A stretch of DNA of 64,000 bases from assembly GCA_964556325.1 (NCBI GenBank), contig CAZKVS010000003.1:4219-68218 (forward strand), in the 5' to 3' direction. The position numbers and the translations under genes were made by a program. This document shows, one piece after another, positions 4,086 through 45,782 of the stretch (positions within the stretch are counted from its first letter, which is position 1; each line of letters starts with the position of its first letter). The notes beneath the pieces were generated by a model that was not told the origin of the DNA, searched no databases, and saw only the letters and a list, made by a program, of their open reading frames with translations. This DNA is from an uncultured Candidatus Saccharibacteria bacterium. Lineage in GTDB: Bacteria > Patescibacteriota > Doudnabacteria > UBA920.

Positions 4086-4153
4086 TACCCCTCCGAGCGC
4101 CCATCGCCGAAGGGGTTAAATTTTGGTATGATACAAACAATAATCACTATAAT

Positions 4154-4534
4154 ATGGCCACCCGGTTAGTTATTGATCACATTGTTATCTCGGTCTCCGA
4201 CCTTACTAAAAGCACCAAGTTCTATAGTGCTTTTTTAGGCAAGCCAAAGCAAGGAAAAGAAGATGTGCATTTTGTACTGGGGTCAACCAAACTCTTTCTC
4301 ACTTCGCCATACAAGCAATCTGCTAAAAAATTCGACAAGCACAATATTGGACTGAACCATATTGCCTTGCAAATGAAAAGCTTGCCCATGCTACGCAGCT
4401 ACGTGCAAAAGTTGGACAAGGCACGCATTGCTCACAGCAGCATTCAAATAGATACCTTTAGCCTCAAACAGTTTGTACATTTTGACGACCCCGATGGCAT
4501 GAGACTAGAACTATACATTCGTAAATTGATTTAA
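4154..4534 (+). CDS. VOC/glyoxalase-family protein
   Basis: 126 aa, VIDHIVISVSDLTKSTKFYSAFLG glyoxalase-like N-terminus. Confidence 0.55.
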   Translation: MATRLVIDHIVISVSDLTKSTKFYSAFLGKPKQGKEDVHFVLGSTKLFLTSPYKQSAKKFDKHNIGLNHIALQMKSLPMLRSYVQKLDKARIAHSSIQIDTFSLKQFVHFDDPDGMRLELYIRKLI

Positions 4535-25843: not shown

Positions 25844-26438
25844 GACCTGCCTACTACTCCTCGTCCTCTTCATTTTCATCTATGCTTGCGTGTTTGGTTT
25901 TATAACCATAGTACACCGCAATAGCGAGGAGCAAGAAGGTAAACAGTAGAGAAGCGTATTCTTTCATATACATAATTGGTAGTTTACTTACTTATACAAA
26001 TAAGTCAGTAAATTACGAATCGTTACATGAGACGCTATACTGCAGGACCAAGTAGGTACGTATGTACTGCATGGACACCTCGCTTGGTATTTCACTCAGA
26101 AATACCACTTATGACTAAAGTGCGGGGAGTAACTCCGCATAGAGGTATTTTTGGATTTCACGAACCAGCATTACGCTGAATTATATTCCAAAAGTCGACG
26201 AGGTTAGCTGACGGGCTCGGTTATGGAATTTACTTAACATGTAGTTACCCACATGTACTCGCCCCGGCCCCACAAAGTATGGTAGGGAATTTGGTTCCCC
26301 CGCGTTACACTGCCCTATTACGATAGGCAGGTGGTAACTTAGACTTACCTTGAAAGGATTATACGCAGGGCTCCATAAGCTGTCAAACCTCATAAGTGGA
26401 TATCTTTTACCACATTTTTCAAAAAAAAATACCCGTAC

Positions 26439-38654: not shown

Positions 38655-38822
38655 GATGGCAGACGAAAACGACAAGAATGCAACTAGCAGTAGCAAAAGC
38701 CGATTAGCCTTGCAGGCCAGATCCGCCGCGGGCGGAAAATGGGTGAAGAAAGATTCCCAAAAACCTTCTGCAGAACGGATCAAAATTCGGGATGCCCTAC
38801 GCAGGGCACAAAAAAGTGACTA
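38655..38822 (+). CDS. unannotated small basic protein (55 aa) with strong Shine-Dalgarno
   Basis: GAGGAGG 8 nt upstream of ATG; MADENDKNATSSSKSRLALQARSAAGGKWVKKDSQKPSAERIKIRDALRRAQKSD. Confidence 0.35.
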
Positions 38823-39074
38823 ATTTGCCACCAAAACTACCTGGGAGAAGAGACGGAACTTCTCCCATTTATTTAAAAATCAAATTTGCTCAATAATATA
38901 ATACATATTATACTTACCTAAGTTTTGAAGGGCCCGGTATGGGCGTTTTTTATTAATAAGCGATACAAATCAACAAATTCATGCGAATCTGTGAATGCAC
39001 TACGAACAGTTGGTTAGGTGCTTCGTAGGCTATTCGTAGATTCGAATCATTGGTAGTTTCGCATCGGTATACAT

Positions 39075-44074: not shown

Positions 44075-44151
44075 GCACCTATAGCTCAACTGGATAGAGC
44101 ATCAGCCTTCGAAGCTGAGGGTTGCAGGTTCGACTCCTGCTGGGTGCACCA
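44075..44151 (+). tRNA. tRNA-Arg (TCG) with encoded CCA
   Basis: hand-folded 77-nt cloverleaf; anticodon loop CTTCGAA. Confidence 0.85.
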
Positions 44152-44166
44152 TTTTTACCAAAACTC

Positions 44167-44520
44167 ATGAATCTAGATAGCGCTGTCTTTTACACCAATG
44201 CACTCGAACCCAGCATCCGCTTCTATCGTGATATTTTGGGTTTTACCGTAGAGTACGTACAAGATGACAAATTTGTATCTTTTATTTTTCCCAATGGTGC
44301 CCGACTTGGAATAAAGAAAAAAGTTGAAGACAGAGAAGTTCCTGGCGCCCAAACAGTTTTTATATCTATTCATACCGGGATTGAAGAACTGTATCAATCA
44401 TACAAAGATAAACAACTTTTCATATATAAAGAGCTAGTTGTGCAAGAATGGGGTAAAAATTTTAGCATACTTGACCCTGATAATAACAAAGTGCAATTTG
44501 TAGAAAAATCAGCTGCCTAA
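44167..44520 (+). CDS. VOC/glyoxalase-family protein; start at ATG 44167 (ORF-track start overlaps tRNA)
   Basis: IRFYRDILGFTVEY... Confidence 0.55.
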   Translation: MNLDSAVFYTNALEPSIRFYRDILGFTVEYVQDDKFVSFIFPNGARLGIKKKVEDREVPGAQTVFISIHTGIEELYQSYKDKQLFIYKELVVQEWGKNFSILDPDNNKVQFVEKSAA

Positions 44521-44541: not shown

Positions 44542-45225
44542 ATGCAAGCAGTTATACTCGCCGCAGGACTGGGTTTACGACTTCGTCCATTTACCGAAAA
44601 ACACCCCAAAGGCCTTGTACCCATTGCTGGCAAGCCATTGCTTCTATGGACTTTGGACAGCCTACCCGACGCGATAACAGAAATAATTATTGTGACAGGC
44701 TGGTTGAGCGAACAAATTAAGATAGCACTCGGCACCTCCTACCAGGGCAAGCCTATACAGTACGTAGAGCAAATGCCACTGGATGGCACTGGCAGCGCGC
44801 TTCACCACGCGCGAACCTTGTTACACGACACTTTTTTGGTTGTAAACGGAGACGACATCTATACCAAAGAAGACCTAGCCAAATTAGCATCTTCACCCAA
44901 CTGGGCCATGCTGGCAAACACCACGACCAAACCACTAGCTGGCGCCCTGGCCGTGGACGCCTCAGGAGCTGTAACCGAGTTAGTCAACGACCAGAGTCAA
45001 AACGAAAAATGGATTAACTGCGGGGCATACCTGACAGATGTGCATTTCTTTGAGAGAACACTTGTAGGCATACCCGTTCGGGATAAAACCGAATACAGTC
45101 TCCCCCACACCCTCGTCCAAAACCCCGTGGAGCGCCACGTACGGCTCGTAGCGGCTACTAAATGGCTTCCTGTAGGCACCCCTGAAGAACTTGCCAAAGC
45201 CGAAAAAATACTAGATAATATATAG
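44542..45225 (+). CDS. sugar-phosphate nucleotidyltransferase
   Basis: MQAVILAAGLGLRLRPFTEKHPKGLVPIAGKPLL. Confidence 0.7.
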   Translation: MQAVILAAGLGLRLRPFTEKHPKGLVPIAGKPLLLWTLDSLPDAITEIIIVTGWLSEQIKIALGTSYQGKPIQYVEQMPLDGTGSALHHARTLLHDTFLVVNGDDIYTKEDLAKLASSPNWAMLANTTTKPLAGALAVDASGAVTELVNDQSQNEKWINCGAYLTDVHFFERTLVGIPVRDKTEYSLPHTLVQNPVERHVRLVAATKWLPVGTPEELAKAEKILDNI

Positions 45226-45250: not shown

Positions 45251-45302
45251 GCGCCCATAGCTCAGCTGGTAGATCCGCCGGCTGGCGGACTCTTAAGCAA
45301 AA
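45251..45302 (+). pseudogene. tRNA-Lys 5'-fragment copy (acceptor+D-arm identical for 23 nt, GC hairpin replaces 5' anticodon stem, then CTCTTAAGCAAA)
   Basis: direct comparison with the intact tRNA-Lys at 45557. Confidence 0.5.
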
Positions 45303-45305
45303 GAT

Positions 45306-45566
45306 ATGTACACCACATATGTTATTTGCAACCAAACTGGTAAGATATATATTGGGCAAACAGAAAATCTAGTTCTGCGTTTAAAAAGACATAATCAAGA
45401 ATTGCCAAGCAAGTCGTCTTCTTATACCCATAAGAATAAAGGTCCCTGGAAAGTTATACATACAGAAAACTTTCTGACTCGTGCAGATGCCGTGACCCGC
45501 GAGAAAGAACTTAAAAACTTTCAAGGCAGGCAGTATATTAAAAATTTACTCAACATGCGCCCATAG
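45306..45566 (+). CDS. GIY-YIG nuclease-family small protein (YhbQ/UPF0213-like), 3' end overlaps first 10 nt of tRNA-Lys
   Basis: MYTTYVICNQTGKIYIGQTENLVLRLKRHNQ (GIY..YIG + R..H/N core). Confidence 0.65.
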   Translation: MYTTYVICNQTGKIYIGQTENLVLRLKRHNQELPSKSSSYTHKNKGPWKVIHTENFLTRADAVTREKELKNFQGRQYIKNLLNMRP

Positions 45567-45632
45567 CTCAGCTGGTAGAGCAGTTGCCTCTTAAGCAAAC
45601 GGTCACAGGTTCGATCCCTGTTGGGCGCACCA
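45557..45632 (+). tRNA. tRNA-Lys (CTT) with encoded CCA
   Basis: hand-folded 76-nt cloverleaf; anticodon loop CTCTTAA; G27:A43 mismatch. Confidence 0.85.
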
Positions 45633-45634
45633 AT

Positions 45635-45659
45635 AAAACACTCCACTCGGAGTGTTTTT
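45635..45659 (+). terminator. terminator aacactcc-actc-ggagtgtt + TTTTTA
   Basis: after tRNA-Lys; near-duplicate at 45745-45772. Confidence 0.5.
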
Positions 45660-45662
45660 ATA

Positions 45663-45740
45663 TTAGCTCAGCTGGTAGATCCCGCTCAGCGGGACTTTAA
45701 ACGGACGGCCTCCCGGTGCCACACTACCATAGTTGCACCA
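45663..45740 (+). pseudogene. degenerate tRNA-like relic (TAGCTCAGCTGGTAGATC + GC hairpin + CTTTAAACGG ... GCACCA)
   Basis: same architecture as the 45251 fragment; no T-arm. Confidence 0.35.
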
Positions 45741-45744
45741 ATAC

Positions 45745-45772
45745 AAAAAACACTCACCAAGAGTGTTTTTAT
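45745..45772. terminator. terminator aaaaacactc-accaa-gagtgttttt (bidirectional)
   Basis: near-copy of the 45635 terminator including the TTTTTATATT tail. Confidence 0.5.
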
Positions 45773-45782
45773 ATTTACTTTT

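Follow-up and report, generated by a model that had tools for sequence, protein, structure and literature searches.

In phage T4 the GIY-YIG enzyme SegB, whose gene lies in a transfer RNA (tRNA) cluster, cuts tRNA genes and homes (PMC2330249), and in T4 and T6 SegB combines homing with nuclease-dependent tandem amplification of an adjacent tRNA segment via short homologies (PMC2330249, PMC13096335). Here we describe a locus at positions 45251-45775 of a 64,000-nucleotide (nt) stretch of DNA from an uncultured Candidatus Saccharibacteria bacterium (the window), in which an 86-amino-acid (aa) GIY-YIG open reading frame (ORF) abuts an intact tRNA-Lys gene and is accompanied by partial copies of that gene, each carrying a palindromic hairpin in place of some of its nucleotides. 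The interpretation of such loci as a selfish, recombination-driven nuclease cassette specialised on tRNA genes is well supported, and we consider it reasonably probable that the locus is one copy of a widespread cassette of this kind, with the palindrome acting as the nuclease’s cis element. As with SegB, a GIY-YIG gene sits among tRNA genes, the DNA of tRNA genes provides the recombination substrate or homology, and spread by double-strand-break repair is proposed here. SegB, however, has about 220 aa, a DNA-binding domain and I-TevI/UvrC ancestry, whereas the present protein consists of nothing but an SLX1-like catalytic domain of 86 aa. Partial tRNA copies with a substituted hairpin are absent from SegB loci, and SegB amplifies working tRNAs where the present element amplifies disabled fragments. 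Unlike phage-borne SegB, too, the present element resides in bacterial chromosomes, and scans of viral contigs did not turn it up.

In size, fold and sequence family the protein matches the prokaryotic Slx1-like or UPF0213 proteins (COG2827; EF2693, PDB entry 1ywl, and BH0048, PDB entry 1zg2), with an E value of 1e-5 to 1ywl. A 2006 survey of GIY-YIG proteins described the prokaryotic Slx1-like group as a minimal domain without auxiliary domains, mostly vertically inherited and of unknown role (PMC1564403); it reported no tRNA linkage, partial copies or palindrome, whereas the present clade behaves as a mobile, locus-specific element. A 2024 study of ribosomal RNA (rRNA) genes in the candidate phyla radiation (CPR) found GIY-YIG ORFs in rRNA-gene insertions that are neither group I nor group II introns (PMC11270868). 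Those insertions occur in the same host group and likewise affect stable-RNA genes, but they interrupt the rRNA genes, are sparse, were judged to lie outside homing and were reported with no tRNA linkage or hairpin module (PMC11270868). Integrative elements, through their attL and attR sites, also duplicate part of a tRNA gene; the present element differs in having no integrase and a single 86-aa ORF, and in duplicating either the 5' or the 3' part of the gene, always with an internal hairpin substitution.

Short palindromic repeat systems include REP/REPIN sequences with RAYT, Rickettsia palindromic elements and the GC clusters of yeast mitochondria. With REPINs as the comparison system (PMC8049555), the likeness is that a short GC-rich hairpin is conserved together with a single associated protein gene, and that hairpins can land in RNA or protein genes. 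Those repeats, however, are dispersed in many copies and simply insert, and the associated protein is an HUH transposase; the present hairpin replaces nucleotides, has a GIY-YIG nuclease as its partner and occurs inside tRNA copies only (in the 64-kb window, two at tRNA-Lys plus one chance match). Full-text literature searches, which included the hairpin sequences themselves, returned no description of the element, and Rfam holds no family for its hairpin-bearing tRNA fragments, which an earlier reading of the locus from its letters alone (the sequence-only reading) had suspected to be undescribed. The three-part, tRNA-linked design does not appear to have been described so far. We rate the element as kin to free-standing selfish nuclease genes at conserved RNA genes, with the conserved palindrome and the obligatory hairpin-substituted target copies as its new features.

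Anatomy of the tRNA-Lys locus and its nuclease

The cassette has three parts: an SLX1/UPF0213-like GIY-YIG gene flush against an intact tRNA, partial copies of that tRNA, and a palindrome in every copy. The partial copies lie beyond the ORF on its far side and/or past the tRNA. In the window, the following features make up the locus (bp, base pairs):

45191..45219 (+): promoter-like site TTGCCA-17-GATAAT upstream of the 5' partial copy, from a consensus scan only, 10/12 matches
45251..45301 (+): 5' partial copy of tRNA-Lys, identical to the intact tRNA in 23/23 and 12/12 nt
45274..45289 (+): palindromic hairpin TCCGCCGGCTGGCGGA, 16 nt, 6-bp stem and 4-nt loop, -10.2 kcal/mol, z -2.85
45306..45566 (+): GIY-YIG nuclease ORF, 86 aa, PF01541 E 7.6e-15, its final 10 nt, including the stop codon, overlapping the tRNA
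45557..45632 (+): intact tRNA-Lys(CTT) with encoded CCA, called by ARAGORN and by Rfam (RF00005, 68.9 bits)
45635..45664 (+): terminator-like hairpin 1 (AAAACACTCC/GGAGTGTTTT) with T run, an inverted and direct repeat, kept in the related locus L083
45664..45740 (+): degenerate 3' partial copy of tRNA-Lys, positions 8-76, ending in GCACCA, with an exact 16-nt D-arm match
45746..45775 (+): terminator-like hairpin 2, near-duplicate of terminator 1, an inverted and direct repeat also found by terminator scan

The 5' partial copy comprises tRNA positions 1-23, the hairpin in place of positions 24-31, and then positions 32-43. Its first 23 nt, GCGCCCATAGCTCAGCTGGTAGA, are found with 100% identity at 45251-45273 and 45557-45579, and the second occurrence is the 5' end of the intact tRNA-Lys(CTT) called by both ARAGORN and Rfam, as the sequence-only reading had recognised. 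That reading had also matched the segment after the hairpin to the genuine anticodon loop and 3' stem, and the 12-nt anticodon-loop segment CTCTTAAGCAAA is indeed present at 45290 and again at 45588. Between these segments, the hairpin stands in for exactly 8 nt, GCAGTTGC, which run from the last part of the D stem through position 26 and along the 5' strand of the anticodon stem; the hairpin is thus where it had been seen, but it replaces more than the anticodon stem to which it had been assigned. The ORF had been thought to end inside the acceptor stem, whereas its stop codon TAG (45564-45566) coincides with U8-A9-G10 of the tRNA, just beyond that stem. A third copy had been credited with the same architecture as the first. 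It is a D-arm copy with a hairpin, but it is of the 3' type, starting at position 8, with a hairpin of different sequence (TCCCGCTCAGCGGGA, 45680-45694) and a decayed T arm. At L083, where the intact tRNA-Lys is 100% identical to that of the window, the counterpart of this third copy is well preserved, spanning tRNA-Lys positions 8-76 with a canonical hairpin. The two terminators are near-duplicates, as proposed, with 15 identical nt (45650 and 45761) and a 10-bp stem in each.

The partial copies are missing one acceptor strand. ARAGORN and Rfam called 45557-45632 alone as a tRNA in the window locus, and likewise did not call the partial copies at four other loci. Besides real tRNAs, Rfam returned no family for the window region at E up to 10, and none for four related loci at E up to 0.1 beyond a sub-threshold match of transfer-messenger RNA to a 3' fragment. 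The insert (45302-45556, 255 nt) holds solely the 86-aa ORF, no integrase lies near the locus, and apart from the hairpin itself the 55-nt leader folds no better than shuffled sequences (z -0.73). Within the window the D-arm 16-mer has three matches against 0.65 expected by chance, which is a weak argument; the decisive evidence is that the architecture recurs in about 90 other genomes. Three hairpins of this type occur in the window, two at the tRNA-Lys locus and one in a coding ORF. The last, TCCGCCGCGGGCGGA at 38722-38736, was rejected as an unrelated chance match: it lies in a small ORF (38656-38823, +) and has no tRNA context and no Rfam match. The ORF around it (MADENDKN..., with a Shine-Dalgarno sequence in front) occupies a 570-nt gap between larger genes.

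The product of the 86-aa ORF matches PF01541 over residues 1-72 (E 7.6e-15; 55.4 bits against a cut-off of 22.6), and the GIY-YIG assignment of the ORF between the two copies was therefore sound. The catalytic residues Y5, Y15, R25, H29 and E66 do not vary in either of two homologue sets, of 20 and of 52 proteins. An AlphaFold model (pLDDT 93.5) has the secondary-structure order E-E-H-H-E-H-H, with the three-stranded sheet flanked by helices that marks the GIY-YIG superfamily. SLX1 and UPF0213 proteins made up all of the top nine Foldseek matches and were the only significant ones, with the SLX1 nuclease domain at TM 0.64-0.71 and about 30% identity, and phmmer against the PDB returned 1ywl (1.3e-5), 1zg2 (8e-4) and SLX1 (5e-3) and no match to I-TevI or UvrC. 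The NCBIfam group I intron endonuclease model scored 23 bits against a cut-off of 56, the UvrC model was also far below its cut-off, and the PADLOC defence-system library gave weak generic matches only. By sequence and predicted structure, the ORF belongs to the minimal, single-domain SLX1/UPF0213-like nucleases and not to the I-TevI/Seg homing-endonuclease lineage, a point on which the sequence-only reading has to be adjusted; the protein is one GIY-YIG domain throughout, with no DNA-binding domain. SLX1 cleaves branched DNA, according to the title of PDB entry 6seh and to PMC6902002. Comparison of the window ORF with that of L083 gave dN 0.19 and pS 0.84, with synonymous sites saturated, and by this measure the ORF is under purifying selection. 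The low dN and the invariant catalytic residues together argue for a maintained and, by prediction, probably active minimal nuclease.

Recurrence, conservation and mobility across genomes

We scanned one genome per species for the pattern GGTARATCCGNCNNNNGNCGGACT, which is biased to tRNA-Lys, and at least 119 loci matched. About 88 of these have a tRNA-Lys context, in genomes of distinct species that are almost all labelled Patescibacteria (Moran-, Shapiro-, Doudna-, Sung-, Jorgensen-, Kerfeld-, Buchanan- and Saccharibacteria); the other matches are chance hits in GC-rich coding DNA. Among the matches listed, the hairpin replaces exactly 8 nt in all of the approximately 115 copies examined. 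Near 80 tRNA-Lys genes it is carried by 93 of the 97 extra D-arm copies, the four exceptions being two real neighbouring tRNAs, one point-mutated hairpin and one different GC palindrome. A GIY-YIG ORF is present in 63 of 127 loci, mostly 10-50 nt from the hairpin, and many of the other loci end at contig edges. Three layouts were found. Type A, the commonest and that of the window, runs from a 5' fragment with hairpin through the ORF to the intact tRNA; type B consists of one to five 5' fragments, the intact tRNA, the ORF and a 3' fragment with hairpin; and type C has one or more fragments and the tRNA, with no ORF. The tRNA-Lys version was also seen at 12 loci from metagenome-assembled genomes (MAGs) labelled Gammaproteobacteria, Pseudomonadales, Clostridia or Bdellovibrionales (L012, L024, L033, L035, L036, L053, L060, L067, L072, L075, L076 and L086). 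These loci resemble the Patescibacteria loci in GC content (0.33-0.44) and tRNA neighbourhood, and the labels may therefore reflect mis-binning.

The same design was found when loci were chosen independently of the hairpin. Seven contexts were picked by protein alone (the window locus and six reached via protein homologues), and the design is present in all seven, including one at tRNA-His. Homologues of about 60% identity each adjoin a tRNA-Lys gene (CTT or UUU), and the partial tRNA copies at their loci have the same 8 nt swapped for TCCGCCAACTGGCGGA, TCCGCCAGCTGGCGGA or TCCGTCAGCTGACGGA. At tRNA-His(GTG), in L156, a hairpin identical to the window’s takes the place of the corresponding 8 nt, GCATCAGC, and hairpin-bearing fragments were also found beside intact tRNA-His and tRNA-Cys genes. 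We further examined a distant clade with ORFs 36-46% identical to the window ORF. An unlabelled 991-kb contig (L159) carries three tandem tRNA-Asn 5' fragments with TCCGCCG(T/C)GGCGGA, an intact tRNA-Asn, the ORF and a hairpin-bearing 3' fragment; a Planctomycetota MAG (L158) has tRNA-Asn, the ORF and then a 3' fragment with hairpin; and on the 2.99-Mb chromosome of an Arcticibacter of the Bacteroidota (L160), an initiator-like tRNA-Met is followed by three tandem units, each made up of the ORF, hairpin TCCGCCCTAGGCGGA, a 3' fragment and a terminator. Since L156, L158, L159 and L160 share TCCGCC/GGCGGA, the stem is kept across phyla and isotypes. Within the tRNA copy the hairpin is located at positions 24-31 in tRNA-Lys and tRNA-His, at 25-34 in tRNA-Asn, and in the D loop of tRNA-fMet and tRNA-Cys; additional hairpins are located in the T loop or D arm. 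In every context examined, homologous ORFs (36-69% identity) lie flush against tRNA genes with hairpin-substituted copies, which supports the earlier suggestion of a tRNA-targeted insertion or duplication of a GIY-YIG cassette. The alternative offered at the time, a family of tRNA-derived repeats, also holds true, yet the repeats are part of the same system.

In a library of 1.8 billion proteins, the ORF family comprises 1,897 clusters at E ≤ 1e-3 and 122 at E ≤ 1e-10. Many database proteins of the family are extended at the N or C terminus by a stretch translated from a tRNA D arm, a T arm or the hairpin, which suggests that the linkage reaches further into the family. One 655-aa protein (P0101) contains two GIY-YIG domains of the ORF family in frame within a protein that resembles, by eye, the specificity subunit (HsdS) of a type I restriction system, suggesting that the ORF can invade protein-coding genes too. 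A short-read Logan contig bearing the window ORF at 100% identity (L001) ends 27 nt past the ORF, inside repeated tRNA-Lys sequence. Assemblies probably break or collapse at this repeat, and array copy numbers in MAGs may therefore be underestimates.

The hairpin stem has the general form TCCGCC-(2-4 nt)-GGCGGA. Five of its six pairs were fixed by the search pattern and one pair was free. The free pair is Watson-Crick in 91 of 94 tRNA-context copies (77 C-G and 14 T-A) as against 15 of 33 chance hits (Fisher 3e-10), and 12 double compensatory changes were counted in the stem. Copies outside the pattern selection have compensated changes at other pairs (TCCGGC/GCCGGA, TCCCGC/GCGGGA and TTCGCC/GGCGAA), and in the variant hairpin of the window’s third copy pairing is likewise kept via compensated changes. 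The loop is AGCT, which makes a perfect 16-bp palindrome, or is a single transition from AGCT; in chance hits from viral and GC-rich DNA the loops are random. The 51-nt fragment with its hairpin differs by one transition between the window and L083, though the ORF has pS 0.84. Judged from these comparisons, the hairpin is under constraint.

The native 8-mer that the hairpin replaces has the form GC-RNNN-GC, with GCAGTTGC the commonest version and the palindrome GCAGCTGC in five loci. This resembles the hairpin core GCC-AGCT-GGC, and the hairpin may thus have begun as a palindromic extension of the tRNA-Lys sequence. Comparison of the loop with native positions 26-29 gave no locus-level correlation (p 0.79). 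The 27-43 pair of the anticodon stem is non-standard, mostly G.A, in 57 of 80 intact tRNA-Lys genes (L002-L126 and the window), among them the window’s own, where the Rfam alignment flags it. As a mark of ORF carriage this mismatch was rejected, being present whether or not an ORF adjoins.

Synteny of an NTP-transferase gene, tRNA-Lys and pilus genes is common to four genomes, which differ at the tRNA. L083 has the window’s layout with an ORF 69% identical; in L010 the ORF, 57% identical, lies downstream of the tRNA; L125 is syntenic with no ORF; and L127, related more distantly but still syntenic, lacks the ORF and has its tRNA inverted, with a hairpin-rich relic present. A search for relatives in metagenome contigs via the neighbouring NTP-transferase gave best matches of 48-51% identity, L127 among them, and L083, L010 and L125 came from the pattern scan. 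The arrangement therefore varies among syntenic relatives and is not a fixed tRNA leader; the sequence-only reading had named a uniform arrangement of sister genomes, with no empty site, as grounds for refutation, and these loci do not show it. The L127 relic (4140-4330, -) lies downstream of the tRNA-Lys terminator. Within a closing helix, GCGTGGGACG...CGTCCCACGC, it contains the hairpins TTCCACCGTAGGTGGAA and TCCGCCTAAGGCGGA, after which come GTCGCCAGCAGGCGAC and a terminal GTCCCACCA, and it looks like a tRNA-Lys with several arms replaced by hairpins.

Two filled/empty pairs were identified, L073/L049 and L010/L125, and the indels of both end in repeated tRNA segments, as expected for recombination between copies. 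A tandem duplication of fragment and ORF was found in L123, with the second ORF cut to its last 45 nt, and frameshifted or truncated ORFs were found in L019, L047, L048, L065 and L154, for example. Within clusters of closely related ORFs, CTT, UUU and His targets are found side by side, as are the two orientations of the ORF to the tRNA. Fragment copies belonging to one array are identical to each other, which is what unequal exchange would be expected to produce.

Mode of movement and competing explanations

Of 28 type A loci, 17 use U8-A9-G10 of the tRNA as the stop codon of the ORF. In type B loci the ATG lies 0-3 nt after the tRNA 3' end, and the stop codon is the TAG of the D-loop GGTAGA or a TGA within the hairpin. 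The site at 45191-45219 is a candidate promoter of one transcript spanning fragment, ORF and tRNA, and given its location upstream of the 5' fragment, co-transcription of the ORF with the tRNA, driven by the tRNA promoter, would be the simplest reading. RNase P or 3' processing would then separate the messenger from the tRNA; in type A the RNase P cut would strip the ORF of its stop codon, and in type B 3' processing would leave a nearly leaderless messenger.

For the movement of the cassette we infer the following course. The nuclease, probably a symmetric dimer or a structure-specific enzyme, would recognise the palindrome as duplex, hairpin or cruciform. The break would fall in the dispensable tRNA copy beside the nuclease’s own gene, so that its ends carry tRNA homology, and an intact tRNA gene, whether that of a sister chromosome, of incoming DNA or of another isoacceptor, would then serve as the repair template and have ORF and hairpin copied beside it. 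Unequal exchange would yield tandem fragment arrays. The hairpin would also disable the extra copy as a tRNA, and because it splits the direct repeat into blocks of at most 23 nt, loss of the ORF should slow. We favour the palindrome as the cis element because its sequence is conserved beyond what mere disruption would need, because it travels with the ORF family across phyla and isotypes, and because the protein has the fold of a structure-specific nuclease.

Several points weigh against this proposal. Cleavage, its substrate and the transfer event all stand as proposals, and cutting beside one’s own gene is not how classical homing works. The proposal cannot explain the exact placement of the hairpin at positions 24-31 in both tRNA-Lys and tRNA-His, with no shared 3'-side homology, and an 86-aa domain without a DNA-binding module may be unable to read a 16-bp site. 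Since five stem pairs were set by the pattern, conservation in the large set is partly ascertainment, and the case for it rests on the smaller protein-selected set. The perfect stem of different sequence in the third copy suggests selection on structure and not on sequence. Fragment-only loci with perfect hairpins and no ORF nearby (L013, L036, L049, L076 and L125) suggest that the fragments could have a function of their own. Finally, the non-Patescibacteria host labels in the pattern scan are MAG labels as given.

The main rival, which we regard as unlikely, is a classical free-standing homing endonuclease that cuts intact tRNA genes in ORF-less genomes, around positions 24-31 in the case of tRNA-Lys and tRNA-His; the hairpin would be an immunity patch on a partial copy that serves as homology arm. 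Presence and absence together with decay and loss at one locus, as in free-standing homing endonuclease genes, were seen, and the filled/empty pairs and the gain, decay and loss of the ORF are what the usual homing cycle would produce. A homing enzyme would also explain the hairpin’s single fixed place in tRNA-Lys and tRNA-His, and would be consistent with the extra hairpins, which fall on further conserved motifs of the tRNA, the T loop recognised by SegB (PMC2330249) among them. As to protection of a carrier allele, the partial copies are altered by the hairpin, but an unaltered tRNA always adjoins the ORF. Against the rival, this intact tRNA is presumably cleavable, and a self-inflicted cut between the direct repeats would lead to loss of the ORF. 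An immunity patch needs neither a stem conserved from Patescibacteria to Bacteroidota nor an AGCT-like loop; the hairpin position varies by isotype (25-34 in tRNA-Asn, D loop in tRNA-fMet and tRNA-Cys); and the Seg and I-Tev enzymes have a DNA-binding domain that is missing from this protein.

We consider it improbable that the locus is instead a stable, host-beneficial RNA feature of the tRNA operon, in which the fragments are leaders, processing RNAs or decoys that control expression of the tRNA or the ORF or soak up tRNA-directed nucleases, and the ORF is a domesticated partner. The persistence of fragments with perfect hairpins where no ORF is nearby fits such a role, as do the 5' fragment between promoter-like site and ORF, the coincidence of ORF ends with tRNA processing sites (the U8-A9-G10 stop codon and the ATG beside the 3' end) and the compensated changes that keep pairing in the third copy’s variant hairpin. 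Set against this, the layout is not constant among close syntenic relatives, which may lack the ORF; the fragments, without one acceptor strand, are not tRNA-like to ARAGORN or Rfam; the array copies are identical, as from unequal exchange; and apart from the hairpin the 55-nt leader has z -0.73.

To a reading of the fragments as homology guides, whether as RNA or as single-stranded DNA, we give less credence again. Here the fragment could pair with the intact tRNA gene via flanks of 23 nt and 12-25 nt, and the 16-nt hairpin, lying opposite the 8-nt native segment, could make the branch in a heteroduplex that the SLX1-like nuclease cuts. The flanks would set the target, and swapping them would change it. 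Guides of this kind would account for one hairpin serving tRNA-Lys(CTT), tRNA-Lys(UUU), tRNA-His, tRNA-Asn, tRNA-Met and tRNA-Cys, and also for the perfect match of the flanks to the local tRNA, the dispensable DNA-binding domain and the fragment arrays.

An att-site duplication left by an integrase-borne island or prophage is hardly credible. Partial tRNA copies on either side of inserted DNA are what usually betrays an integrative element (PMC9897764), but the anatomy of the locus refutes such an origin: the 255-nt insert holds the 86-aa ORF alone with no integrase nearby, and the duplicated part is the tRNA 5' end with an internal substitution, where att duplications are exact 3'-end copies. 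Neither the protein scan nor the pattern scan of viral contigs turned up an element of this kind. A phage origin was rejected as well; the protein-profile scan of viral contigs gave seven distant hits, of which five were checked and had no tRNA nearby, and the hairpin pattern scan of these contigs gave only chance hits in GC-rich DNA, with random loops. A group I intron within the tRNA, with the GIY-YIG ORF as its homing endonuclease, is just as negligible and is refuted. Such introns commonly carry GIY-YIG genes and the NCBIfam model matched weakly, but at 23 bits that match falls far short of the cut-off of 56, nothing interrupts the intact tRNA, Rfam gave no intron match at E up to 10, and the ORF takes up the entire interval, in which a ribozyme would have no room.

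Neighbouring features and significance

Shortly upstream of tRNA-Lys(CTT) lies a tRNA-Arg(TCG) gene (44075-44151), a neighbour that recurs in many related loci. It is overlapped by the listed TTG start of a glyoxalase-like ORF (44122-44520), whose true start is therefore probably further downstream. Elsewhere in the window, at 26178-26325 (-), Rfam identified a cyclic di-AMP riboswitch of the ydaO/yuaA type (RF00379; 40.4 bits against a gathering score of 38).

Patescibacteria have reduced genomes, in which tRNA genes are presumably single-copy. If the selfish-cassette interpretation is true, the stand-alone SLX1/UPF0213 family, which has no assigned function, includes a widespread and unnoticed selfish class specialised on tRNA genes. 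Such a class would explain recurrent pseudo-tRNA fragments, broken assemblies and mis-called proteins, and the 86-aa protein with its 16-nt palindrome would offer a small, tractable pair for the study of locus specificity without a DNA-binding domain. It would also bear on genome dynamics in the reduced genomes of Patescibacteria.

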